A DNA stretch of 44,583 bases from Escherichia phage vB_EcoD_Over9000: sequence record NC_073079.1; one strand, 5' to 3'. Made by a program: the position numbers and the translations under genes. This document shows positions 8,307 through 39,870 of this stretch, one piece after another (the stretch's first letter is position 1; each line of letters opens with the position of its first letter). The notes beneath the pieces were generated by a model. It made no database searches. It saw only the letters and a list, made by a program, of their open reading frames with translations, and was not told the DNA's origin.

Positions 8307-8816
8307 GTGAATGAAATGTATGGCGACCCGCAAACATTTGTCGATTATGCCGCGGCGCGAGGCGTTGAAGTCACGCTGAGCGATGCAACGCGACACCTTA
8401 CCGTAGTTAATGACTTCCTTAACGGCATCAACTGGATCGGAGAACCCGCAGACCAGACCGGAATCGACGCATGGCCCCGCATAAATTACCCATCGGACGG
8501 TAAGCCGGTGCGCGACACTCTCACTGAAGTTGTGGCAGTAGTGCCTGCAGGGCAGATCGTAGATTTTGCATCAATCCCCATTGCCGTCGAGCAAGCCGTT
8601 TACAGGTTGGCGATGTTGGTGGCGGACGAGGTCGATATTTCTCCTGTTGGCAGTGGTAAGGAGACTATCCGCGAAACTGTTGGCCCGATCACGATGGAAT
8701 ATGACCCTGCGACGATTGGTAGCGGTGTCTCGTTCCCGTGGTGGGATGGCTTGCTGGGCCACTGGATTGACTCCGACGGCAACGCAGCGGGTAATTTTGA
8801 CGTATTCCGGGGGTGA
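8307..8816 (+). CDS. head completion / head-tail connector protein (putative)
   Basis: 169 aa ORF first after the capsid terminator; position equivalent to neck genes; no specific motif. Confidence 0.4.
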   Translation: MNEMYGDPQTFVDYAAARGVEVTLSDATRHLTVVNDFLNGINWIGEPADQTGIDAWPRINYPSDGKPVRDTLTEVVAVVPAGQIVDFASIPIAVEQAVYRLAMLVADEVDISPVGSGKETIRETVGPITMEYDPATIGSGVSFPWWDGLLGHWIDSDGNAAGNFDVFRG

Positions 8817-8817
8817 T

Positions 8818-8934
8818 ATGAATCCTGCATTACTGGCGGCTATTATCGCCGCAAATACTAAACGCCAACCAGAACCGGAGCCAGCACCAGAACCAGAACC
8901 ACCGGTACAGGAGGATGATAATGGCGGGCTTTAA
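8818..8934 (+). CDS. small Pro/Glu-rich protein (uncertain)
   Basis: 38 aa ORF (MNPALLAAIIAANTKRQPEPEPAPEPEPP...) starting 2 bp after the upstream stop; may be non-coding. Confidence 0.2.
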   Translation: MNPALLAAIIAANTKRQPEPEPAPEPEPPVQEDDNGGL

Positions 8935-9274
8935 TTACGCAGGATTAAAGCGGAAAGTGAATCCGCTGATTAAAAAATTCGGCATGACCGTTACGGTTAC
9001 GCGTCCGGGGTCGGTTGACCGCGTAGACGGCGACGAAGTGGTAATCCCGCCAACGTCGTTCGACGTCATAGGTCTTCGCGAGGAGTACAAGCCTAGCGAG
9101 ATCGACGGAACGCGTATCGTTACCGGTGATGTGAAGTTTTTATGTCGGGCGGTTGAGCAATTGCGGGTGGGCGACCTTGTCAACCTGAACGGCACTGACT
9201 ACCGTGTCGTTAACCCTAACCCACTGCAACCGGCGGGGACGACCATGCTGTTTCAACTACAGCTAAGGGGCTAA
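8921..9274 (+). CDS. head-tail joining protein (FII-like, putative)
   Basis: 117 aa from ATG 8921 preceded by AGGAGG (8910-8915); position in the neck module. Confidence 0.45.
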   Translation: MAGFNYAGLKRKVNPLIKKFGMTVTVTRPGSVDRVDGDEVVIPPTSFDVIGLREEYKPSEIDGTRIVTGDVKFLCRAVEQLRVGDLVNLNGTDYRVVNPNPLQPAGTTMLFQLQLRG

Positions 9275-9275
9275 C

Positions 9276-9869
9276 GTGGCTGAAGTCTACTCATTCGCCG
9301 CCACTATTGCTACGTGGGTGGATAAGACGAAGGAGAACAACGATAAGGCGGTGCGGGCGTACGGGATGCAAATACTCGGACGCCTTATTGAGATCTCCCC
9401 GGTGGGCGACCCTCGCCGGTGGAAAATTAACAGGGCTTACGCGCTGGCCCGCCAGCACGCGAACAAGGTGAACGCCGCGCAGCGTCGCAAGAATGGTGGC
9501 AAACTGAAGCGCGGGCAGAAAAAGCACGCCAGCGTGCTGGTATCATTCAAGACTAAAAACGGCAACGTCACGTTCCGCCAGCGTGGCTGGGCTGCGAAGA
9601 ATTACACCGGCGGACGCTTCCGGGGGAACTGGCAGGTTACGTTCGACCGACCGGCGGTTGGCGCTATCGACCGCGTGGACAAGGCCGGAACGGCAACATT
9701 AGCCGCTGGGCGTGAAGTGTTGGCGCACTATGATTCGAGTGAATACGGGTCGATCTGGTTTACTAACAATGTGCCGTATGCGCAGCGACTTGAGTATGGC
9801 TGGAGTAAACAAGCGCCCGCGGGGATTGTTCGCGTCGTAGCGGCAGAAATTAATTCAAAGGTGAAATAA
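9276..9869 (+). CDS. tail completion protein (Z-like, putative)
   Basis: 197 aa ORF with GTG start at 9276 (RBS AAGGGG); neck-module position between head-tail joining and tail terminator genes. Confidence 0.4.
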   Translation: MAEVYSFAATIATWVDKTKENNDKAVRAYGMQILGRLIEISPVGDPRRWKINRAYALARQHANKVNAAQRRKNGGKLKRGQKKHASVLVSFKTKNGNVTFRQRGWAAKNYTGGRFRGNWQVTFDRPAVGAIDRVDKAGTATLAAGREVLAHYDSSEYGSIWFTNNVPYAQRLEYGWSKQAPAGIVRVVAAEINSKVK

Positions 9870-10291
9870 TGAGCAATACTCTAATCCGCAAGGCGCTTAA
9901 CAGCGTAGTAGAAGAATTATCGGTAAGCCTGAGCACTAGCACGCGCCCGATAAAGGTTAACTGGGAGAACGTGAGCGGCGACCACGCAAAAGGCAGCGGT
10001 GTCTACCTGGAACCGTACCTGCTTCCGGCCCCTACCCAGTTTGTGGGCTTCCAGCAGAAGGGCCGTATCTATGCCGGTGTGTATCAGGTTGCCGTGGTGT
10101 TTCCTGCAGGCACTGGCACACAGTATGCGAGCGAACTGGCGGACGCCATCGCGACGTCTGACAAGTGGCAGGCCGTAAGGCTTACCGGCGCAGCGTTCCA
10201 GCTTCAGGACGCGCCATACACCAGTTCGGTGATTGAGGATGTTGATCGCGCCCGCATCGTGGTTACAGTGCCCTATTCCTGTTGTGCCTGA
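9869..10291 (+). CDS. tail terminator protein (U-like, putative)
   Basis: 140 aa; ATGA start/stop overlap with the upstream gene; directly precedes the major tail gene. Confidence 0.4.
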   Translation: MSNTLIRKALNSVVEELSVSLSTSTRPIKVNWENVSGDHAKGSGVYLEPYLLPAPTQFVGFQQKGRIYAGVYQVAVVFPAGTGTQYASELADAIATSDKWQAVRLTGAAFQLQDAPYTSSVIEDVDRARIVVTVPYSCCA

Positions 10292-11823: not shown

Positions 11824-12145
11824 TGAAGCGGGACAAGCGGGACGCCCCGTTTTGTCCCGCCCCTGTAAAACCGCATATCTAATCACTTTCATTGCATAAA
11901 CTCAAAGCGGGACAGGCGGGACGTCCCGTTTTGTCCCACCCCTGAAATGTGCATACCTATTCGAATTTCGTGCATAAAACAAACGGGACAGAAAGCGGGA
12001 CAAATGCGGGGCGGGACAAAGCGGGACAGCACCCCATCCCCACCAGTGCTGCCGCGGTTTTCAGCCGATCGGGACAGGCGGGACAAACCCCAGTCTTTCA
12101 GACTAGACGGGGGTCAACGGCCCCCCTCGTCTGAGACTGAATAAG
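11824..12145. repeat. iteron cluster (GCGGGACA boxes) plus conserved hairpin element, copy A
   Basis: About ten GCGGGAC(A/G) boxes, two ~80-bp tandem units (11826-11905, 11906-11985) each containing GCGGGAC-N10-GTCCC(G/A)C inverted repeats, then the ~50-bp element AGTCTTTCAGACTAGACGGGGGTCAACGGCCCCCCTCGTCTGAGACTGAATAA. Confidence 0.8.
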
Positions 12146-12207: not shown

Positions 12208-14850
12208 ATGGCAGATCAAGCGGCAGGCATCACGCTGAAGGCGGATGTCGCACAAATCAGAACGGCGAATACTGTGCTTGATTCATTCGCACAGAAATCC
12301 GAGAACACAGAAAACAAGGTTAAGAAATTAAACGACACCCTCGGCAAATCCAAAAAGGTGACGAGTGACGCCGCGGGCGGAATGGAGAAGCTGGCGACTG
12401 AATCGCAGCGCGCTGCCGATGGCATGACGAAACAGGAGCGACTTGCCAACAGGTTAGGCATGTCGACCAAAAACCTGGGCTTTGCCTCGCGTAACGCCGC
12501 ATTCCAGTTACAGGATATTGCGGTAACGCTTGAGATGGGTATGCCGGTGCACCGCGTTATGCTTCAGCAGTTACCACAGCTTACTGGGGCGTTCGGGGGA
12601 TTTGGTAACACGCTGCGTTATGTCGCGGGCGTCCTCGGTCCGGTAGGGATCGGCATTGCAGCACTAACGGCAACTTTAGGCGTAGGGGTGGCAATTACGT
12701 CCCGCGCAGAGAACCAGGTCTCAGCGCTTAACAAGACGCTGGCGCTGTCAGGTAACATTTCCGGCCTGACGGCAAACCAGATCCTGGTGCTATCCGAGAA
12801 CGCCGAGCGCATGGGCGGGTCGTTCCGCAAGACGCGTGACACAATCCAGTCGCTGGCGGCGGCGGGTGTGAAAGCGGGTGCGGACTTCGGCACGCTGGCG
12901 AAAGTGGTGAATGACTTTGCGAAGGTGTCCAGCCAGTCGATCGAGGATGTGGTCGCGGCGGTGGCAAAGTTGTCCACTGACCCAGTAGGCGGCTTGCGAG
13001 CATTGGCTGATAAGTATCACGTCGTAAACGAAGCGCAGATCCAGCAGGTACAATCCCTGGTGGATATGGGTCGTGAGACTGAAGCGGTGGCGCTGGCTAA
13101 TAAAACAGCCGCGGCGTCGTTCACCACCATGACCAACGATATTAAGTCCAACATGGGAACGCTCGAGCGGTCGATGAACGTCGTCACATCGGCAGCGAAA
13201 TCTATGTGGGATGCAATCCTGGATGTGGGCCGCGCGCAGTCCTCAAATGAGTCCGAGATGAAGGCGCGAGAGTCCTTACAGCGTCTGACAACGGCTTACT
13301 ATGCCGAGATGAAAGCGGTCAACGCTGCCGGTGGGGTAATGACAGAGGCGCAGAAAGCACGTATTAACATGCTTTACAGCGAACTGGTCGCACAGGAAAA
13401 AGTAGTGGCATCGCTCACCCTGCGTAACCGTGCAGAGCGAGACAACGCCCGCGCCGCGGACGAATCCGCGAAGGCGAACGAGGAGGCCAACCGCACCGCC
13501 CGTGACCGCGCCGCGTTCGAGAAGGAATACGCCACCAACGCTAAGAAGCGCGCCGACGAGATCGCCCGCCTCAATTTGCTGAATAAGCGCGGCGTGATCG
13601 ACGAGAAGGAACTGGCTGAGGCGGTGAAGCAGGTCAACGAGCGCTACAAAGACCCAGCACCGAAGAAGGCCGCGGCTGTTCGCGTGGATGCCGGTATGAA
13701 AATGCTGGAAGTCGCACGGAGCGAACTGGCCCAGCTTCGAGAATCCGGCAAGCAGATCGAAGCCAACGCGTCTACGCAGACCCGCACGCAACGCGCTCAA
13801 GCGGCCTTAAACAAGCTGATCGCCGACAATGAGCAGTTAATCGCTGCGAGCAAAGAAAGAGCGCTAACGGCAGCAGAAAAGCAGCAATTAGTCGAGTTCG
13901 GGCGCGTGAAGGAAGTCCGCGAGCAGATCGTCGAAGAAGCCAAATTGCTGGATGCGAAAGAGCAGCAGGTTAAGGCGCACGCGCAGATCGATGCCTTCGT
14001 TAAGAACCAGAACGCCGAACTAAAAGCCACCGCCGCGGGGTATGCGCTTTCCACTCGCGAAGCGGCAAACCTGCGCGAAGAATTGCAGCTAATTGACCGC
14101 CTGAAGCGGGTTGGCGCTAACGATACCGATATTGACAAGGCGGTGTCTAAGCTGCGAGAAGTGCAGGAAGCACAGACCGGCGCTAACGCCTCGTTATGGG
14201 ATGGATTCAGTCGCGGGCTTAAGGATAGCGTGGATGAAATGGGTAACGGATATACGCAGATGGCGTCTCTCACGAAATTCACATTCAGCGCTATGCAGGA
14301 CACGATGAACGAGTTTTTCGAGACTGGCAAGCTGAACGCAAAGGATATGGTTAAGTCCATCCTGAGCGAATTAATCAAGCTGGCTACATCGCAGGCGTTC
14401 AAGTCCATCGTTAGCGCTTTCGGGGGCGACGGCGGCAAAAACGGATTGTTCGGCGCTATCTTCTCCGGCCTCACTAAGAATGCGGACGGCGGAGCGTACG
14501 CAGGGGGCAATCTCGCGGCCTATTCGGGGCAGGTGGTAAGCCAGCCAACCTTTTTCAGTTATGGCGTCCAGGCGTTCGCTAAGGGCGCAGGATTGATGGG
14601 CGAGGCTGGTCCCGAGGCCATCATGCCGCTGAAGCGCGGGCCGGACGGGAAACTGGGCGTTGCCGCGTCTGGCGCAGGCGGTGGTATGGTCGTGACGACT
14701 AACGTTTACACGGGGACCGGTAAAACGGATACCAGTGTCAGCGGGCCGGATCCCCGTACCGCGCAGGCGTTCGGCAAGCAAATCACCGAGGCGGTGAAGG
14801 CCGAGATCGTGAAGGCGACGAAACCGGGTGGTGTACTTTACAAACGATGA
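12208..14850 (+). CDS. tail tape measure protein
   Basis: 880 aa, long Ala/Glu/Lys/Gln-rich helical region, central hydrophobic segment (VLGPVGIGIAALTATLGVGVAI), Gly-rich C-terminus; position after G/GT. Confidence 0.9.
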   Translation: MADQAAGITLKADVAQIRTANTVLDSFAQKSENTENKVKKLNDTLGKSKKVTSDAAGGMEKLATESQRAADGMTKQERLANRLGMSTKNLGFASRNAAFQLQDIAVTLEMGMPVHRVMLQQLPQLTGAFGGFGNTLRYVAGVLGPVGIGIAALTATLGVGVAITSRAENQVSALNKTLALSGNISGLTANQILVLSENAERMGGSFRKTRDTIQSLAAAGVKAGADFGTLAKVVNDFAKVSSQSIEDVVAAVAKLSTDPVGGLRALADKYHVVNEAQIQQVQSLVDMGRETEAVALANKTAAASFTTMTNDIKSNMGTLERSMNVVTSAAKSMWDAILDVGRAQSSNESEMKARESLQRLTTAYYAEMKAVNAAGGVMTEAQKARINMLYSELVAQEKVVASLTLRNRAERDNARAADESAKANEEANRTARDRAAFEKEYATNAKKRADEIARLNLLNKRGVIDEKELAEAVKQVNERYKDPAPKKAAAVRVDAGMKMLEVARSELAQLRESGKQIEANASTQTRTQRAQAALNKLIADNEQLIAASKERALTAAEKQQLVEFGRVKEVREQIVEEAKLLDAKEQQVKAHAQIDAFVKNQNAELKATAAGYALSTREAANLREELQLIDRLKRVGANDTDIDKAVSKLREVQEAQTGANASLWDGFSRGLKDSVDEMGNGYTQMASLTKFTFSAMQDTMNEFFETGKLNAKDMVKSILSELIKLATSQAFKSIVSAFGGDGGKNGLFGAIFSGLTKNADGGAYAGGNLAAYSGQVVSQPTFFSYGVQAFAKGAGLMGEAGPEAIMPLKRGPDGKLGVAASGAGGGMVVTTNVYTGTGKTDTSVSGPDPRTAQAFGKQITEAVKAEIVKATKPGGVLYKR

Positions 14851-32992: not shown

Positions 32993-33775
32993 TTAACGGC
33001 GGCGACGTTTACGTGGCGCTTCGTCTTCGTCGTCGTCCTCATCTTCGTCATCGCGTGGCTTACGACGTTTGCGAGGTTTTTCATCTTCCTCATCGTCGTC
33101 GTCATCGCGGCGCTTGGATTTCTTGGACTTGCGCGGCTTGTCATCTTCATCATCGTCATCACGACGTTTTGACTTTTTGGACTTGCGCGGTGCTTCGTCT
33201 TCGTCGTCGTTGTCCAGGTCTTCATCGGAGCAAGAAGACCCGCCACCTCCGAAGGCTTCGCCGTCTTCACGGAATCGCAGACCCAGCAAGCCAGCACCGA
33301 GTCCCTTACCGTTGGTGTTGTTCCACGCCCAAATATCCAGTGACACGTTGCAATAACAACCGGAATAGATTTCCTGGCCTTCGATCTCGTCGCCTTCTAC
33401 GGTCAGACCTTGCTCGGTCTGCTTCTCGCCCAGTGACGTTTGGATGTTAGGCTGTTTGAACGATTTGGCGTTGATGTACAACATGCCTTCGAACTCTTCG
33501 GTTACTTCGTCGCGCTCGTCACCGTCGCGAACTGCGCATTCCTTAGAATCCTGGGCGTAGTGGCGGTCCATCCACTTATCGGCATTCTTCTCGGATTTCA
33601 GCTTGTCGGTGAGCACTGCGCGCGCTGCCGCTTCCACTTTGTCCACCTGCGGATCTTCTTTATCCAGAAGAATCACTGCACGGTATGCCGGTTTTTGTCC
33701 ATCCTGTTTAGGGGTATCGCGTTCCCAAATTTTCAGGAAACATACGCGCACATTTTTCAGGTTGACTTTAGCCAT
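32993..33775 (-). CDS. ssDNA-binding protein-like (DUF2815-type) with zwitterionic repeat C-terminal tail
   Basis: 260 aa from ATG 33775 (RBS GAGGAA); N-terminus MAKVNLKNVRVCF... resembles DUF2815 phage SSB-like proteins; C-terminus has three repeats of acidic run plus KPRKSKKSKRR-type basic run. Confidence 0.55.
   Translation of the reverse strand: MAKVNLKNVRVCFLKIWERDTPKQDGQKPAYRAVILLDKEDPQVDKVEAAARAVLTDKLKSEKNADKWMDRHYAQDSKECAVRDGDERDEVTEEFEGMLYINAKSFKQPNIQTSLGEKQTEQGLTVEGDEIEGQEIYSGCYCNVSLDIWAWNNTNGKGLGAGLLGLRFREDGEAFGGGGSSCSDEDLDNDDEDEAPRKSKKSKRRDDDDEDDKPRKSKKSKRRDDDDDEEDEKPRKRRKPRDDEDEDDDEDEAPRKRRRR
33040..33230. repeat. imperfect tandem repeats within the SSB-like gene 3' end
   Basis: About 57-bp units (...TTGGACTTGCGCGG...TCATCTTCATCATCGTCATC...) encoding the alternating acidic/basic protein repeats. 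Confidence 0.6.
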
Positions 33776-33865
33776 TTTCCAATTCCTCATTTTCACATGT
33801 ATCGGGGTTATTGGAAGCCACCCCGTTCGGCTTGGTTGCAAATTTACTCGGTTGCGCCTAAGCGG

Positions 33866-34108: not shown

Positions 34109-35531
34109 TGCTTAAGTCCTCGTCAGTAGCTTCCGACCACGCAGGGCGAGGGTCGTCGATTGGGGCTAACACCGGTTTGGCTGGTGCGCGCGTGATTTTA
34201 GCACACAGCTTCGCCCACACTTTCGGCTTTTCGTCCTTCAGTACCTTCTCGGCATCCGTAGGGCTGAGCAATGTTTCTTTGTACATCACATCGCGCTTGA
34301 TCCGGGCCTTCGTGAAGATTTCAATAACTTCGCTCTCGTCCGCCCACTTACGGATCCCTTCCTTACCGGCAACCATCTTGAGGCCCAGCGATTCACCATC
34401 ACCCGCCATTACAGCCTTAAATACCGCGGACTCGATCGCTTTGATGTGCTGGCGCATTGCGTCCAGACCTTCATAAGCCTTGCGCAGTTCCGCAGCGCTC
34501 ATAGCGCCTGGGGCCGCTTCTTTCTTACCGCGCTTCGCACGTCGTGCCGCCTTCCTGGCTTCGCGGGCCATATTGCGGTCGTGATTGGCGCATTCTTCCT
34601 CGGTCGCCACGCTCACGTCGTCGCCCAGGTCTTCGTCGGTTGCCGTTGGAGGTGTCATCGTGTCGATTGCGGCCTTAGCGCGGGCACTACACTGATCCGC
34701 AAATCGACACCACTGGCACGCATCAACGCTGGGCCGGAAGTCTGCGCGGGTGAGTCCCTTCTTGCCTCGGGAATACGCCTCCAGTGCGGCAATAGCGCGC
34801 TTGGATGCAAACTTCGCGAATATCTCCAGCGCTTCTACCGAAATATCCCACTCCGACGCCCCGCCGCAATACGGCTGGAAGATAACCAGTCGCACGGTTG
34901 TAATGTCGTACATAGTTTGCAGCTTGCGCAGCAGTCCGAGCGCGTACAACATAAGCTGTTTGTTCTCTTTCGCCTCGACCTTATGCCGCCCGGTCTTCAG
35001 GTCGCCAACAATCAGCATGTACGTTCCATCGGTCTTTTTCATTACCATGACCATATCGGCAGTACCGAACGTTTTAATCCTGTTGCCGTCGATCTCGTAG
35101 CCTGAGTGAAGGACGCGGGTCAGATCGGCGCGCATCTCAAGCTGGACAAACTCCGCCACTTCGAGGAGCGGTCGCCAGTGGTCGATGTACGCGTCGCACT
35201 GTTTCACCATGTCGTCGTTGACCAGTACGCCGCCTTTCGGTGCTTTAGGGTGTGCCTTTACTGGCCCCTTGCCTTCGTTCTCGACGTAGCACCCTTTATA
35301 CGCCTTCGCGGTTATCAGCTTTTCCCCAGCAATGATGCGGTTTAGCACGACCTCTGATACAGTGTGCATACTTGTACCGTTAATCGCAGCTTGCCCGGAT
35401 TCGTTCGGGATATCTTTTTCGACCACCAGGGCGGCAGGGCAACCCATCCATTTTTTAGCACCGGACGGTCCGAGTAATGAGTGTTCCGTATTGCTACCGG
35501 ATTGCGTTTTACGTTTTGGTTTAATCGCCAT
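34101..35531 (-). CDS. Cas4-like PD-(D/E)xK nuclease (DUF2800 family)
   Basis: 476 aa; N-terminal LLGPSGAKKWMGCP...NGTSMHTV matches the DUF2800 start signature; Cys cluster CQWCRFADQC; charged C-terminal extension. Confidence 0.7.
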   Translation of the reverse strand: MAIKPKRKTQSGSNTEHSLLGPSGAKKWMGCPAALVVEKDIPNESGQAAINGTSMHTVSEVVLNRIIAGEKLITAKAYKGCYVENEGKGPVKAHPKAPKGGVLVNDDMVKQCDAYIDHWRPLLEVAEFVQLEMRADLTRVLHSGYEIDGNRIKTFGTADMVMVMKKTDGTYMLIVGDLKTGRHKVEAKENKQLMLYALGLLRKLQTMYDITTVRLVIFQPYCGGASEWDISVEALEIFAKFASKRAIAALEAYSRGKKGLTRADFRPSVDACQWCRFADQCSARAKAAIDTMTPPTATDEDLGDDVSVATEEECANHDRNMAREARKAARRAKRGKKEAAPGAMSAAELRKAYEGLDAMRQHIKAIESAVFKAVMAGDGESLGLKMVAGKEGIRKWADESEVIEIFTKARIKRDVMYKETLLSPTDAEKVLKDEKPKVWAKLCAKITRAPAKPVLAPIDDPRPAWSEATDEDLSNE

Positions 35532-35719
35532 TATTCCACCCTTGAAAACTGAGCAATGTAATAATCATGTTCAACATTGGCCCGCTTAGCGGCATTGTTC
35601 ATGGTAGCCGCCAGTCCTCGGGCTTGCATCCAGCAGCAATTCCAGTTTTGATTCATAACAATTTCCGGTTGCTCGTCGCCGGTAATACGGCAACGAAATA
35701 AAACAAAGAAGATAGCCAT
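35531..35719 (-). CDS. small hypothetical protein
   Basis: 62 aa ORF tightly packed between neighbouring reverse-strand genes. Confidence 0.3.
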   Translation of the reverse strand: MAIFFVLFRCRITGDEQPEIVMNQNWNCCWMQARGLAATMNNAAKRANVEHDYYIAQFSRVE

Positions 35720-35971
35720 TTATTTTGTCTCCCAGCGGTCAATTGTTCTTGCTTCGGATGCAACTGCGAAGCGAACATATTCCAGATTGGAATCCGCCCA
35801 AATATAAAAATCGGGGTTAGTAAAGGTGGTGCGCTTAATTTGCGCGGGGGTGTTGCGGCGTTTATCTATTACGGCAACTCGCGACTGAAAGCTGCCGATG
35901 CGTTCGAACAGCCAATAGTACGGGCGCTGGTCGCGGGAGTCCACCGCCTCGATTAGCGTGAAGCGTGCCAT
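35720..35971 (-). CDS. small hypothetical protein
   Basis: 83 aa ORF; start 10 bp downstream (in transcript direction) of terminator 35982-36011. Confidence 0.4.
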   Translation of the reverse strand: MARFTLIEAVDSRDQRPYYWLFERIGSFQSRVAVIDKRRNTPAQIKRTTFTNPDFYIWADSNLEYVRFAVASEARTIDRWETK

Positions 35972-35981
35972 TGTCTCGTCC

Positions 35982-36011
35982 TCTAAAAAGAGGCCCGCTA
36001 ATCTGCGGGCC
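35982..36011 (-). terminator. intrinsic terminator (reverse strand) after the acidic-protein gene
   Basis: GGCCCGC-AGATTA-GCGGGCC hairpin on the reverse strand followed by CTTTTTAG. Confidence 0.6.
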
Positions 36012-36019
36012 GGAATATA

Positions 36020-36535
36020 TTAATCTTCCAGTTCGAAATAGGTTTCGACGATTTCTTTTAGCTCTTTGTGGAAGTCTTCGACGTCGTCATCTTCCAGCTT
36101 GGCGATTGATTTGATCTCGAACGATTCCAGCAGGTCGTCGAATTCGTCGTTCGCATCGTCGTCATCGCCACCGGCGATAATCGCGGCATACTGTTTGATT
36201 TCGTCGCGCATCTCTGCCAGCGGGTCGGCATCTTTCTTACCTTTGCCTTTCGCCGGTGCTTTCTTAGACTTAGCCGGTTTTTCGTCTTCGGCATCGTCGT
36301 CGTCATCTTCTACGACTTCTTTTTTAGCCTTACCTTTCGCCGGGGCTTTTTTAGATTTAGCCGGTTTTTCGTCTTCGGCGTCATCGTCGTCATCTTCGAC
36401 AACTTCTTTTTTGGCCTTAGACGGCTTCTTGTCTTCCTGTTTACCAACGGCAGCGCCAACGGTTTCATAATGCTTTGCAATGGTTTCCAGTGCTACTACG
36501 CCGCGAGTGATCAGGTTTACGATTTGCTCAAACAT
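36020..36535 (-). CDS. highly acidic protein with tandem repeats (DNA-mimic / anti-restriction candidate)
   Basis: 171 aa from ATG 36535 (RBS GGAG); two 28-aa repeats KKEVVEDDDDDAEDEKPAKSKKAPAKGK; acidic C-terminus; own terminator 35982-36011; first gene of the reverse block. Confidence 0.55.
   Translation of the reverse strand: MFEQIVNLITRGVVALETIAKHYETVGAAVGKQEDKKPSKAKKEVVEDDDDDAEDEKPAKSKKAPAKGKAKKEVVEDDDDDAEDEKPAKSKKAPAKGKGKKDADPLAEMRDEIKQYAAIIAGGDDDDANDEFDDLLESFEIKSIAKLEDDDVEDFHKELKEIVETYFELED
36248..36415. repeat. 84-bp tandem repeat (2 copies) within the acidic-protein gene
   Basis: Near-identical units ...CTTTCGCCGG(T/G)GCTTT(C/T)TTAGA(C/T)TTAGCCGGTTTTTCGTCTTCGGC(A/G)TC(G/A)TCGTCGTCATCTTC... 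Confidence 0.7.
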
Positions 36536-36771
36536 GGTATATCTCCGATTGGTTAAGTTTAGGTGTCGGCAGTTAACTTCGTCGGTGGCCTTAACATATT
36601 GCCAGGTTACGCGTTCTCCCGTTCGGGTAGTGGACCTGGTTATATAATCACGGTTGGGAATCCTGACACTTCGATCCGGCCCCTGCGTTGCCCCTCTCCA
36701 GTTTGCGTCCTGCATCCTGTCGACGGGGTGAATATTAGATTGGTTGCATGTGGGGTGTCAACAACTAATTT

Positions 36772-36807
36772 CAAAAAAAAAGCGCCGAGGCAAAATGCGG
36801 CGGCGCT
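36772..36807 (-). terminator. orphan intrinsic terminator (reverse strand) in the early intergenic region
   Basis: GC-rich hairpin (36781-36807) followed on the reverse strand by nine T (A-run 36773-36781 on +); no reverse-strand ORF upstream of it. Confidence 0.5.
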
Positions 36808-36877
36808 AACCAATAAGAGACAATGAGACGGGAATTATTATTACACGCGTGCGCGCCCGTTTCAATATCCAAAGAAT

Positions 36878-36906
36878 TTGACACCGTGCAGTTTTGGGTG
36901 TAGTTT
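36878..36906 (+). promoter_or_regulatory. sigma70-like promoter upstream of HTH regulator gene
   Basis: Perfect -35 TTGACA (36878-36883), 17-bp spacer, weak -10 TAGTTT (36901-36906). Confidence 0.4.
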
Positions 36907-36937
36907 CGTTGGTCATTAACCAGCTGAGGGCAGAGCA

Positions 36938-37267
36938 ATGAATGTAAACGACGCAATCGAAATGTTAACGAAGACTGTTTGCAGTGAGACAAGCCGGTCA
37001 TGGGCATACACCGATGCCGTGGGGGCTGTGTTATTTGAAATCGAACGACTGCGGCTTACCGAAAAAGAATTGCGCGCCAGGCTGGAACTACTCAACGGTA
37101 CAGCAGCAAGCAAGCTGCAAAAACACAATGAAGAAATGGAAGAATACAAAAAGCAGGTTATCCGTTTGCGCGCCGAGGGTAAATCATGGGCGATGATTGC
37201 CGAGTTGACCGGAATTAATCAGAGCACAGTGCGCTCCTGGGTACGCAATAATAAAACTTCTAAGTAA
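36938..37267 (+). CDS. helix-turn-helix DNA-binding protein (putative transcriptional regulator)
   Basis: 109 aa; C-terminal GKSWAMIAELTGINQSTVRSWVRN is an HTH; promoter-like TTGACA-17-TAGTTT at 36878-36906; RBS GAGGG. Confidence 0.6.
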   Translation: MNVNDAIEMLTKTVCSETSRSWAYTDAVGAVLFEIERLRLTEKELRARLELLNGTAASKLQKHNEEMEEYKKQVIRLRAEGKSWAMIAELTGINQSTVRSWVRNNKTSK

Positions 37268-37277
37268 GGCCACGGCA

Positions 37278-39515
37278 ATGAGCTTGATTAAATTCGCTGT
37301 AACAAAACCCGCTAAAAAAGGCGAAAAAGCCAGGGCGGAAAACTTCCAGATGACGACCGATGAGTTTTTCGAATTTATCAAAGATGCGAAAGAAATCTCC
37401 TCGGTGCATATCAACAAGACGGAAGATAAAGCCGAGTACGCGCGCCGCAAGCGTAAGGCCGATGGCATCGTGGCGTATACCAGTGACGGATTGCGTCGTA
37501 AGACCAGTGCGGTGGACCGCTCGATCCTGTTCTTCGATATCGACCGTACCGACACCCGCACCTTACGCCGCTGCCGTAAGGCGTTCATCGACGCGGGACT
37601 GGAGCACGTCTTCCACACCACCACCGGCGACCGCCACCCGCTGAAGGGCGGCACGCGTTGCGCCCGTTTCCTGGTGCTCACTGACAAGCCTGTACCGGCT
37701 GAAGACCTGGGCCGCGTCCAGTATGCACTATTACACCAACTGGGTCTGTCAGATGTGGCCTTCGACGATTGCACGAAAGACACAAACCGCCTGATGTACC
37801 TGCCACACCAGCAGTCTGTTATTAAGTGCCACTACGGCAAGCGTGCCCGCGTCCGTCGTCTGCTTCGCCTGGCGGATAAGTTGGGCGTGGAGAAGGAGGA
37901 AGTACGCCGCGAGCTTACCCAGGGCGACGACGCAGTGGCAGACGGCATTCTGGACTGGTGCTTCCAGGCAGGATTCGAGGAGTTATCCTCCGGTCGCGGT
38001 TATGAAGTGCCGTGCCCGAACGAACATCTGCACAGCGGCGAAGGGTCGACGGCTATCATGGTCAAGGATGGCGAGATCCGTTTCAAGTGTATGCACACCG
38101 GCAACGAGTGTTGCTCGGAACTGAACAGACACCAGCACCTAGCACTACGTCTTATCGGAATCCCGGACCACCTGAACGTCGAACCGCACAACATGTCACG
38201 TAAGCAAATCGCCGCCATCCTGCCAGGTCTGGACGACGAGGAAGTGGAATCGTGCTATGCGCATATAGTTGATGCGGTCGGTGACGGCGACGAGTACGGC
38301 GTATGTACCGACGCGGACCTGGATAACGAACCGGTCGCACTGTTCAGTAAGCACGACCCGATAATCGAGGGGTTGATTAACTTTAAATCGACCTGGTACA
38401 TGGCTGGCGAGTCGAACATCGGTAAATCGTTCTACGTGCTTGGCCAAATGGGCGCGGTTGCCGCAGGTATTCCGTTCGGCGGTGCGAAGGTCGTCCAGTC
38501 GCATTGCTTCTATTTCGATGCGGAAGGTGGCGAAGCCTCCAACCAGCGTAAGGAAGCATTGCAGATCAAATATGAGCACGATCTCGACAAGCTGCACATT
38601 ATCGACCTGCAATCTCGCGGCTGGGATATCACCAGCAAATCCGGCTTGCGTGAAGTTATCAGCTTCATCAACCGCACCGCTAACGGCGAACCGGTTGGCC
38701 TGGTGGCGTTCGACTCACTCAACCAGACTGTTGCGCTGCGGTCCGCCGATGCAAAACCGTTCGACGAGAACAACGCCAGCGATATGGGTGAAGTGGTCAA
38801 AGCGCTGAAGGCCATTGCGGAAAATACAGGCGGCAGTGCGGGCGTCATCCACCACCCGGCTAAAGGTGCAAACGGCAGCAGATCCCCCCGCGGGTCCGGC
38901 GCGCTGCATGGTGCTGTCGATTCTGCGTTCTTCCTGGAGCAGCCTGACGACAACCAGCCAGGACAACTGAACCTGTATCACGAAAAGGCGCGTAATGGCA
39001 TCAAGCAAGCGCCGCGCGGCTTCGTCCTGCTCAAGTGCAAGGTTAAGGTTGATCTCCGCAAGTCCGAGGCGTTCGAAGCCCACCAGTCCACCAGCACTGG
39101 TCCTGACTTCGGCGATGTGGTTGCCGGTTGGGACGTAAAGCCAATCGCATCCACGCCACGCGACGAGACTCTTTACCTCGTACCGGTCGCCCTGGCGCCG
39201 TTCGCTATCGAACAGGCAAAGGCCGCTGGCAAAGCAGCAGTTAAGGAAGAGAACGCCGCAGGCCCGCGCAACGAAAAAGAGAAAGTGCTTTATGCGGCAC
39301 TGGAAAAACTGATGGAAGATAACCCGGACCATACCGGATTCAGTAAATCGGCAATTGTCCGCCAGGCGGGACTGGCGAAAGGTGGCACCTCGACGAAGGC
39401 AATCGACGATATGGTCGAGCGCGGAGTGTTAGGTTTTTATACCGATCCGCGCACCGGGGCCATCTATGGGTCGTCGAATATCGTCATCAAAACGAATATA
39501 CCCATCACGCTTTAA
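37278..39515 (+). CDS. DNA primase / replicative helicase (AAA_25 / DnaB-RepA-like ATPase with N-terminal primase-like domain)
   Basis: 745 aa; Walker A GESNIGKS and Walker B LVAFDSL in C-terminal half; Cys/His cluster CPNEHLH...CMHTGNECC in N-terminal half; followed by an ori-like repeat region. Confidence 0.75.
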   Translation: MSLIKFAVTKPAKKGEKARAENFQMTTDEFFEFIKDAKEISSVHINKTEDKAEYARRKRKADGIVAYTSDGLRRKTSAVDRSILFFDIDRTDTRTLRRCRKAFIDAGLEHVFHTTTGDRHPLKGGTRCARFLVLTDKPVPAEDLGRVQYALLHQLGLSDVAFDDCTKDTNRLMYLPHQQSVIKCHYGKRARVRRLLRLADKLGVEKEEVRRELTQGDDAVADGILDWCFQAGFEELSSGRGYEVPCPNEHLHSGEGSTAIMVKDGEIRFKCMHTGNECCSELNRHQHLALRLIGIPDHLNVEPHNMSRKQIAAILPGLDDEEVESCYAHIVDAVGDGDEYGVCTDADLDNEPVALFSKHDPIIEGLINFKSTWYMAGESNIGKSFYVLGQMGAVAAGIPFGGAKVVQSHCFYFDAEGGEASNQRKEALQIKYEHDLDKLHIIDLQSRGWDITSKSGLREVISFINRTANGEPVGLVAFDSLNQTVALRSADAKPFDENNASDMGEVVKALKAIAENTGGSAGVIHHPAKGANGSRSPRGSGALHGAVDSAFFLEQPDDNQPGQLNLYHEKARNGIKQAPRGFVLLKCKVKVDLRKSEAFEAHQSTSTGPDFGDVVAGWDVKPIASTPRDETLYLVPVALAPFAIEQAKAAGKAAVKEENAAGPRNEKEKVLYAALEKLMEDNPDHTGFSKSAIVRQAGLAKGGTSTKAIDDMVERGVLGFYTDPRTGAIYGSSNIVIKTNIPITL

Positions 39516-39689: not shown

Positions 39690-39870
39690 TATTGCATAAA
39701 GTAAGCGGGACAAAAAGCGGGACAAACTTAGGGCGGGACAAAGCGGGACAGCACCCCCGTCCCGCCCCGGATGACGCGGCTTCCAGAGGAGCGGGACAGC
39801 GGGACAGCACCCCAGTCTTTCAGACTAGACGGGGGTCAGTGGCCCCCCTCGTCTGAGACTGAATAAAATC
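39690..39870. repeat. iteron cluster (GCGGGACA boxes) plus conserved hairpin element, copy B
   Basis: About 190 bp roughly 85-90 percent identical (by eye) to 11975-12145, including the same ~50-bp hairpin element with only loop changes (TCAACGG vs TCAGTGG). Confidence 0.8.

Follow-up and report, generated by a model that had tools for sequence, protein, structure and literature searches.

Among tailed phages, few replication-recombination cassettes are as widespread as the duf2800-gp2.5-polA module, its DUF2800 nuclease alone matching 1400 phage records, and its SSB (the protein that binds single-stranded DNA) and polymerase are known triggers of the retron Eco8, Borvo and Hachiman defences. 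The module has already been recognised as such, and an acidic gene upstream of it is not mentioned there (PMC8093625). Acidic tails of the SSB type recruit partner proteins and compete with DNA (PMC5686142), and the small acidic proteins Gam of phage lambda and gp5.9 of T7 are described as RecBCD inhibitors in a further report (10.1101/2020.06.21.156273). Here we describe the gene for a 171-amino-acid (aa) acidic protein at positions 36020 to 36535 of the sequence of Escherichia phage vB_EcoD_Over9000 (NC_073079.1); the window is this whole stretch of 44,583 nucleotides (nt). The gene is annotated as 'hypothetical' in more than 150 genomes and is without a characterised relative. It leads the duf2800-gp2.5-polA module in distantly related phages, and we tentatively regard its product as an adaptor of the replication-recombination machinery.

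The gene lies on the minus strand, where it heads the leftward block, divergent from a helix-turn-helix gene and the primase-helicase gene. A 1.8-kb query around it (35500-37300) matches about 170 phage genomes (174 records) at 94-98% identity, almost all of them Dhillonvirus; judged by sequence, the source phage is a Dhillonvirus, that is, an HK578/SO-1-like siphophage of E. coli. The encoded protein has a mass of 19.0 kDa, a pI of 4.47 and 52 Asp and Glu against 30 Lys and Arg residues, resulting in a net charge of -22. Its last 68 aa (104-171) hold 26 acidic and 6 basic residues, a net charge of -20 with 38% Asp/Glu. These values bear out a first-pass annotation of the same DNA, which had pointed to the first gene of the reverse block as encoding a small, very acidic protein of 171 aa with an acidic C-terminus. 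An AlphaFold2 model built with a 32-sequence alignment gave a three-part layout of helix, disordered tether and three-helix domain (pLDDT, predicted local distance difference test):

36020..36535, minus strand: coding sequence of the 171-aa acidic protein, PHROG 3127 family; ATG at 36535, stop codon at 36022-36020
36455..36535, minus strand: N-terminal amphipathic helix, aa 1-27 (AlphaFold2 helix 2-27, pLDDT about 70)
36224..36454, minus strand: disordered block-polyampholyte tether, aa 28-104 (AlphaFold2 pLDDT about 40-45)
36329..36415, minus strand: repeat copy 1, aa 41-69, AKKEVVEDDDDDAEDEKPAKSKKAPAKGK (Tandem Repeats Finder and translation)
36242..36328, minus strand: repeat copy 2, aa 70-98, same protein sequence as copy 1, with 10 synonymous base differences
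36023..36223, minus strand: acidic three-helix C-terminal domain, aa 105-171 (AlphaFold2 helices 105-122, 126-138 and 152-167)

The N-terminal helix has a hydrophobic moment of 0.46, a value reached by 0.1% of shuffles, and the C-terminal domain a block-mean pLDDT of 92-95 over aa 111-160, with lower values at both ends. This folded acidic body makes up 40% of the chain and the disordered part 45%. Helix and domain are both nearly invariant within the genus. The helix is probably a separate binding or self-association element, since no confident docking on the C-terminal domain was predicted (pLDDT about 50-70) even in a natural variant of 115 aa with almost no linker. For the C-terminal domain, fold searches of the PDB returned generic three-helix-bundle matches only. 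As modelled, the domain is acidic enough to serve as a DNA or electrostatic mimic.

Tandem Repeats Finder placed a repeat in the tether at 36231-36419, with a period of 87 nt, 2.2 copies and 88% nucleotide match. The two copies of the 29-aa unit are identical in protein, so that the exact repeats of the first-pass annotation stood; the repeat length of 28 aa given there did not, the string having omitted the first Ala. At the DNA level the copies differ in 10 of 87 bases, all of them at third codon positions and all synonymous (P ~8e-8 under random substitution). This indicates that the duplication is not recent and that the amino-acid sequence, or at least the charge pattern, has been kept. 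The tether (aa 32-103) carries 23 acidic and 22 basic residues and is thus net neutral, and none of 2000 shuffles reached the observed charge segregation. Across the genus, tether length varies from 17 to 81 aa, also between near-identical phages, with no acidic block in 6 clusters, one in 39, two in 47 and three in 5. Natural variants without an acidic block occur, with tethers of 17-26 aa; two of them sit on contigs of full-genome length, an example of this kind being P0082 (122 aa, contig of 44,774 bp). Therefore, the 29-aa repeat is dispensable in nature, and the constrained parts of the protein are its two ends; such variation in length is expected of a spacer, not of a binding surface. 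The genus is a natural tether-length series (0-3 acidic blocks) for the function of disordered linkers.

The family to which the protein belongs, PHROG 3127, has no assigned function; it matches the window protein at E 4e-54 over aa 1-171 and also matches 43 of 61 remote relatives. No Pfam family was found, as a scan with E values up to 10 gave only BUD22, DUF6669, DUF913, GET2 and RRN3, none of them significant. Scans with NCBIfam and PADLOC gave nothing significant, a Pfam scan of the 61 relatives only scattered low-complexity matches, and searches of PDB sequences, run with the protein and with two profiles, only compositional ones (S20, H2B tails, APC). In a search of 5.8 billion proteins we obtained 106 clusters; of those with long contigs, many are of Dhillonvirus size (42-46 kb). 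Phage records with the gene number 153, and almost all of them bear the name of an Escherichia or Shigella phage or of Dhillonvirus. When 1.84 billion representatives were searched with a profile, 80 clusters were obtained at E <=1e-3, mostly of 115-215 aa and matched end to end. All of these have the helix-tether-domain layout, with a median net charge of 0 for the linker and of -11 for the C-terminal domain (range across the family -21 to +4).

Among named phages, a structure search of BFVD independently recovered Gp46 of Edwardsiella phage eiAU and two Salmonella phages, St162 and MB78, the latter with its '13.88 kDa late protein' (Q9T1Z8). The Dhillonvirus gene Welsh_33 and gp59 of Jerseyvirus dunkel are both labelled VOG1545, and hhalign matched gp76 of Burkholderia phage AH2 over its full length (89%, E 2e-6) as well as gp72 of the Chi-like phage BP12C (Chivirus; 74%, E 3e-5). 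The link to the most remote subgroup runs via one bridging sequence, P0106 (single-sequence search, E 1.5e-4), which is contained in both of the profiles compared. No relatives of the remote group were found in bacterial genomes, which fits a family restricted to virulent phages, and tblastn with the remote member P0152 gave no match among GenBank phages. Four members of 208-215 aa (P0113, P0116, P0117, P0171) have two tandem copies of the C-terminal three-helix domain, so the domain, and not the tether alone, can be duplicated. The two characterised small proteins of Dhillonvirus, Ksap1 (74 aa) and anti-Tmn (ORF35), are encoded by different genes.

The window module comprises a primase-helicase, a DUF2800 PD-(D/E)XK exonuclease, a gp2.5/Enc34-type SSB-annealase, PolA and an SNF2 helicase. 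Seven remote loci from IMG/VR were compared with it, with 31-59% best-segment identity to the subgroup queries, the subgroups being about 20-50% identical to the window protein. In all seven, the homologue shares its strand with the DUF2800 nuclease, the gp2.5/Enc34-type SSB and PolA and lies upstream of them; an SNF2 helicase lies further downstream in five of them and a divergent primase-helicase upstream in four. The gene order is the same in Jerseyvirus dunkel, AH2 and BP12C, and the synteny holds to about 20-30% identity. Altogether, we found the position upstream of DUF2800/SSB/PolA conserved in the window and in loci L007-L014, L015 and L016. Two further proteins share this position and can be read as a helix, a short charged linker and a helical domain upstream of the DUF2800 nuclease. 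Both look similar by eye, but homology is not supported by profile comparison: gp16 of Staphylococcus phage phi2958PVL (L017, 2127-2489) reached 2.8%, and gp3 of Rhodobacter phage RcSalem (L019, 1635-2102) reached 66% for the N-terminal helix only. Neither was counted as a member; they may be analogues, or relatives beyond detection.

In one contig, L010 (IMG/VR UViG_3300040781_000154), the whole helix-tether-domain unit is part of a larger protein. The open reading frame (ORF) at 8387-10219 encodes 610 aa, with SNF2-rel_dom and Helicase_C domains in frame with the unit, which forms the C-terminus and has its own EEEE-KPKRRTRRSAKK repeats. It is located directly upstream of the DUF2800 nuclease gene, and the window block encodes an SNF2 helicase of its own. 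A word-indexed search for further fusions with a profile of the C-terminal domain only gave close relatives and nothing else. L010 also has a carbamoyltransferase gene between the primase-helicase gene and the fusion ORF.

The SSB of the window module likewise carries a charged C-terminal region:

32993..33841, minus strand: ORF of the gp2.5/Enc34-type SSB; C-terminal tail at 32993-33250

In the tail, a block of Asp/Glu and then Pro-Arg/Lys (DDDDEDDKPRKSKKSKRR...) is repeated in tandem three to four times with a period of 54 nt, and the last residues are APRKRRRR. Its end (...DEDEAPRKRRRR) is basic, not acidic, and differs from the canonical purely acidic tail. SSBs of the module in other phages have a similar block design; some have an acidic end with Phe and others a basic one. 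For the SSB tail and for the L010 fusion, as for the tether, charge segregation as high as observed was reached in none of 2000 shuffles each, and a blocky acid/base disordered style is common to all three. We considered the acidic protein as an in-trans substitute for a missing acidic tail of the SSB and rejected this idea, because the SSBs of L008 and L009 keep an acidic tail ending in Phe.

Expression data come from a proteomic study of the Dhillonvirus EE09, in which only four phage proteins were detected by mass spectrometry in infected cells (25 min), CDS56 and the SSB CDS61 among them, and CDS56 was absent from the 24 proteins of cell-free lysates (PMC10673088). We confirmed CDS56 as the orthologue of the window acidic protein; CDS61 is the gp2.5-type SSB. 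The acidic protein is thus abundant, intracellular and not reported from virion preparations. This abundance fits the consensus-like promoter of the gene, its strong ribosome-binding site and the terminator that precedes the enzyme genes, and from the host-type promoter we infer early timing. The pattern contradicts the label 'prohead core protein' given in one GenBank record (UDS3lw). A head-assembly scaffold of this kind, or a 'late protein' according to the MB78-derived name '13.88 kDa late protein' used in Jerseyvirus records, would also be abundant in cells and not reported from virions, as scaffolds are. But the gene lies in the replication block and not the morphogenesis block in every genome examined, no match to a scaffold family was found, and the SNF2 fusion in L010 is at odds with such a role, which makes this explanation so improbable as to be nearly negligible. 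A literature source for the MB78 name was not found.

Taken together, we tentatively favour, at somewhat below an even chance, that the protein is an abundant, non-enzymatic electrostatic adaptor or hub of the phage's own T7-like replication-recombination machinery. We do so because its gene is a core gene, deeply syntenic and in one case fused to a replication-recombination gene, because its abundance resembles that of the SSB, and because two conserved ends flank a variable tether. The N-terminal amphipathic helix would bind one partner, or itself, and would anchor the complex. The acidic three-helix bundle would dock on basic DNA-binding surfaces of replication and recombination proteins, candidates being the tail of the phage SSB with its Arg/Lys blocks, the polymerase and the helicases. 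The tether of alternating acidic and Lys/Pro/Ala blocks would set the reach and add weak multivalent contacts, its length drifting through gain and loss of the 29-aa unit. Docking would resemble that of the acidic tails of T7 gp2.5, Enc34 ORF6 and bacterial SSB, which act in cis.

Several points weigh against an adaptor. While the layout, the conservation, the gene order, the single fusion and the abundance in infected cells are observations, the partners and the adaptor role as such are what we infer here. The confidence of AlphaFold2 in the N-terminal helix is only moderate, the fusion was seen in a single contig and its SNF2 helicase is only distantly related to that of the window, and the remote links rest partly on sequence profiles that contain P0106. 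In L008 and L009, moreover, an SSB with a canonical acidic, Phe-ending tail is encoded beside a family member. Finally, synteny with an exonuclease and an annealase fits a Gam-like protector of DNA ends equally well.

Such a protector would be a host-directed DNA mimic like lambda Gam or T7 gp5.9, with the bundle filling the DNA-binding site of RecBCD or of a different host protein that acts at DNA ends or in the nucleoid (such as HU or H-NS). RecBCD inhibitors adjoin recombination genes in lambda and T7, and expression ahead of exonuclease and annealase would parallel the gam-bet-exo arrangement. The acidic protein is encoded by the first gene of an operon with an exonuclease and a gp2.5-type annealase; its C-terminal domain has a suitable charge, as has that of the median family member, and high expression suits stoichiometric inhibition. 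However, no match to Gam or gp5.9 was found in Pfam or in PDB sequence and fold searches, nor any informative similarity to another PDB entry. The C-terminal domains of the family are not all acidic, as their charge range shows, a freely diffusing inhibitor is difficult to reconcile with the in-frame fusion of the unit to an SNF2 helicase, and helix and tether are left unexplained. We consider a Gam-like function unlikely, though the main alternative to an adaptor; if the protein is a host-directed DNA mimic, it would represent a new structural class of such mimics. Retron Ec48 was looked at as an indirect sign of RecBCD inhibition by Dhillonvirus and dropped, the text being silent on which siphophages Ec48 blocks.

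The segregated charge blocks of tether, SSB tail and L010 fusion bear on another explanation, in which the protein is the scaffold of a membrane-less replication/recombination compartment, or a histone-H1-like DNA-coating protein, and co-condenses electrostatically with the SSB tail and DNA, tuned by repeat number. In addition to the segregation, acidic protein and SSB are both abundant non-structural species in infected cells, the Lys/Ala/Pro blocks are histone-tail-like in composition (matches to the H2B N-tail at E about 2-7), and the repeats have been kept at the protein level despite synonymous drift. This evidence is purely compositional, though, and the natural occurrence of 17-26-aa tethers without an acidic block means that the blocks are not essential. 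A protein of net charge -22 with a net-neutral tether is also poorly suited to coat DNA. On balance this explanation is quite unlikely. Its more specific version is more doubtful still, namely that in small siphophages tether and SSB tail co-condense with DNA into a compartment, C-terminal domain and N-terminal helix acting as 'stickers' and repeat number as a fast-evolving tuning knob. If true, the family would be a dedicated viral condensate scaffold in bacteria and a fourth core component of the duf2800-gp2.5-polA module.

The first-pass annotation had added a chaperone or histone-like role as a fallback, based on the Lys-rich segments. This pointed in the right direction, but the DNA-coating, histone-like part of it did not hold, as no DNA-binding domain was detected and the overall charge is strongly negative. 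Its headline had been an Ocr-like DNA mimic that blocks type I restriction-modification, BREX or other DNA-targeting defences. In its favour, the protein is small, acidic and highly expressed, and its gene is the first behind a strong promoter-like site. The Ocr family was not matched in Pfam, PADLOC or NCBIfam, and ArdA/KlcA was not matched in these or in PDB sequence and fold searches. The structure prediction gave no Ocr-like fold, that is, no elongated, fully folded all-helical dimer with carboxylates tracing bent B-DNA; instead, disorder extends over almost half of the chain, and the charges of the repeat region balance out. Genes for anti-defence proteins tend to be accessory and patchily distributed, whereas the gene studied here belongs to the syntenic core of a replication module even in phages that are only distantly related, which argues against an anti-restriction function.

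We used the BASEL data set as an indirect in vivo test of escape from type I restriction. The Dhillonvirus genomes in this set have 0-1 sites for EcoKI or EcoCFT_I, most having none, and dozens for type II and III enzymes. Good plating of most of these phages on the type I hosts is therefore uninformative either way, and the low number of sites suggests evasion of type I systems by site avoidance rather than by an inhibitor. The informative phage is Bas15 (PaulFeyerabend), which has an intact two-repeat orthologue and one site each for EcoKI and EcoCFT_I. Its efficiency of plating was ~0.8 on EcoKI but 0.006-0.014 on the type I system EcoCFT_I, corresponding to ~100-fold restriction through a single site. 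Restriction to this extent despite an intact copy speaks against an effective Ocr-like protein. Thus, the original headline was not upheld, and we judge an anti-restriction mimic very improbable.

The gene is flanked by putative regulatory elements:

36732..36761, minus strand: sigma-70-type promoter-like site, TTGACA-18 nt-TAATAT, with a T-run before it (consensus scan, 10 of 12 matches)
36536..36731, minus strand: 5' leader of roughly 190 nt, in frame with the coding sequence, ~99-100% identical in five phages
36543..36546, minus strand: Shine-Dalgarno sequence GGAG, 7 nt 5' of the ATG, read off the sequence and invariant in an alignment of five Dhillonviruses
35982..36011, minus strand: intrinsic-terminator-like hairpin GGCCCGC-AGAUUA-GCGGGCC with a U-run, 8 nt after the stop codon (folding)

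The promoter-like site lies ~190 nt upstream of the ATG. Its -35 hexamer and the T-run are unchanged in five Dhillonviruses, the -10 element being TAATAT, TATTAT or TATCAT, and distant contigs with P0104 have only the promoter part of the upstream region in common with Dhillonvirus. The alignment of the five phages has 98% mean column identity overall; the leader is ~99-100% identical in them, compared to 94.7-97.6% identity of the wider 1.8-kb region to the same four phages. A structured RNA was rejected, since the leader folds no better than shuffles (z = +0.83), and an Rfam scan of the whole window, leader included, gave no match. Remote homologues lack the long leader and have a short one instead. 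The leader could be a DNA-level element, for example an operator or an origin adjoining the primase-helicase gene. Because it is open in frame, many GenBank records have a 'long' annotation of 231 aa starting at 36715. All remote homologues start at the aligned methionine of MFEQ/MLEK, and we therefore prefer the 171-aa start at 36535.

The terminator hairpin has a 7-bp all-GC stem followed by UCUUUUU; the whole 56-nt segment folds at -20.1 kcal/mol (z = -3.1), and the hairpin is identical in two of the Dhillonvirus loci checked. This agrees with the terminator proposed in the first-pass annotation. The monocistronic unit proposed along with it is less well founded, because a consensus scan gave no promoter-like site between the hairpin and the next gene (ATG at 35971). 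This leaves the downstream genes without such a site, and the terminator is probably leaky or acts as an attenuator instead of ending transcription. The 83-aa gene directly downstream (35720-35971, minus strand; PHROG 4965, VOG1544) co-travels with the acidic-protein gene in Jerseyvirus dunkel and in three remote loci (L012-L014), and its product may be a functional partner of the acidic protein.

Elsewhere in the window, AGCGGGAC occurs in ten plus-strand copies in two intergenic clusters (11827-12027 and 39704-39805), against 1.4 expected by chance; none of 100 shuffles reached ten. The first cluster is located just before an 880-aa ORF (12208-14850), presumably the tape-measure gene, and the second ~190 nt past the end of the primase-helicase gene. 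These copies may be iterons or binding sites of a regulator.

When compared with known systems, the members of PHROG 3127 and pVOG VOG1545 (the MB78 '13.88 kDa late protein', Jerseyvirus gp59-type proteins and Gp46 of eiAU) are true homologues with the same three-part layout and the same gene position, and the names 'late protein' and 'prohead core protein' found among them are unsupported labels. What sets the Dhillonvirus lineage apart from these relatives is the exact 29-aa duplication and the extreme acidity. With T7 Ocr (gp0.3) and ArdA the protein shares small size, strong acidity, strong expression and the first position behind a promoter-like site, and its C-terminal domain falls within the range of DNA mimics with regard to acidic content. 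Ocr, however, is a fully folded, rigid, acidic rod-like dimer encoded by an accessory gene, in contrast to a partly disordered protein encoded by a core module gene. Like lambda Gam and T7 gp5.9, it is small, acidic and helical, and its gene occupies the promoter-proximal end of a set with exonuclease and annealase; unlike them, it has an extra helix and a long tether without counterpart, and no homology or fold match connects it to either.

The adaptor reading has a parallel in the tails of T7 gp2.5, Enc34 ORF6 and bacterial SSB, where a disordered linker is likewise followed by an acidic element, in the setting of a T7-type replication system. Remote family members end in ...DDDDI, ...DDEL or ...EEDDV, which are acidic with a terminal hydrophobic residue and resemble SSB tips, whereas the window protein differs from them in ending in ...TYFELED within a predicted helix. 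Furthermore, it is not a tail on an OB fold, as in an SSB, but a protein by itself, with an acidic domain folded into three helices and an N-terminal helix of its own. The alternation of Lys/Ala/Pro with Asp/Glu blocks is also known from disordered charge-block proteins such as the tails of histones H1 and H2B, the acidic tail of HMGB1 and the Pro-Lys/Pro-Glu spacers of TonB and TolA. The matches to the H2B tail and to TonB polyproline are weak and compositional only, do not indicate homology, and a protein with this net charge is unlike basic DNA-coating proteins.

Docking via an acidic element on a disordered linker, whether electrostatic or by DNA mimicry, is the likely mode of action and is of a known kind. 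What appears to be new is a conserved leading member of the duf2800-gp2.5-polA module, its design of helix, tether and acidic bundle, and a repeat tether that varies naturally. The first gene of the module in many Gram-negative siphophages encodes an acidic protein that is conserved, abundant and for the most part disordered, which adds an unstudied player to it. Whichever role it has, adaptor, DNA-end protector or condensate scaffold, this protein is likely to bear on the replication efficiency of these phages and on how they are sensed by defence systems.

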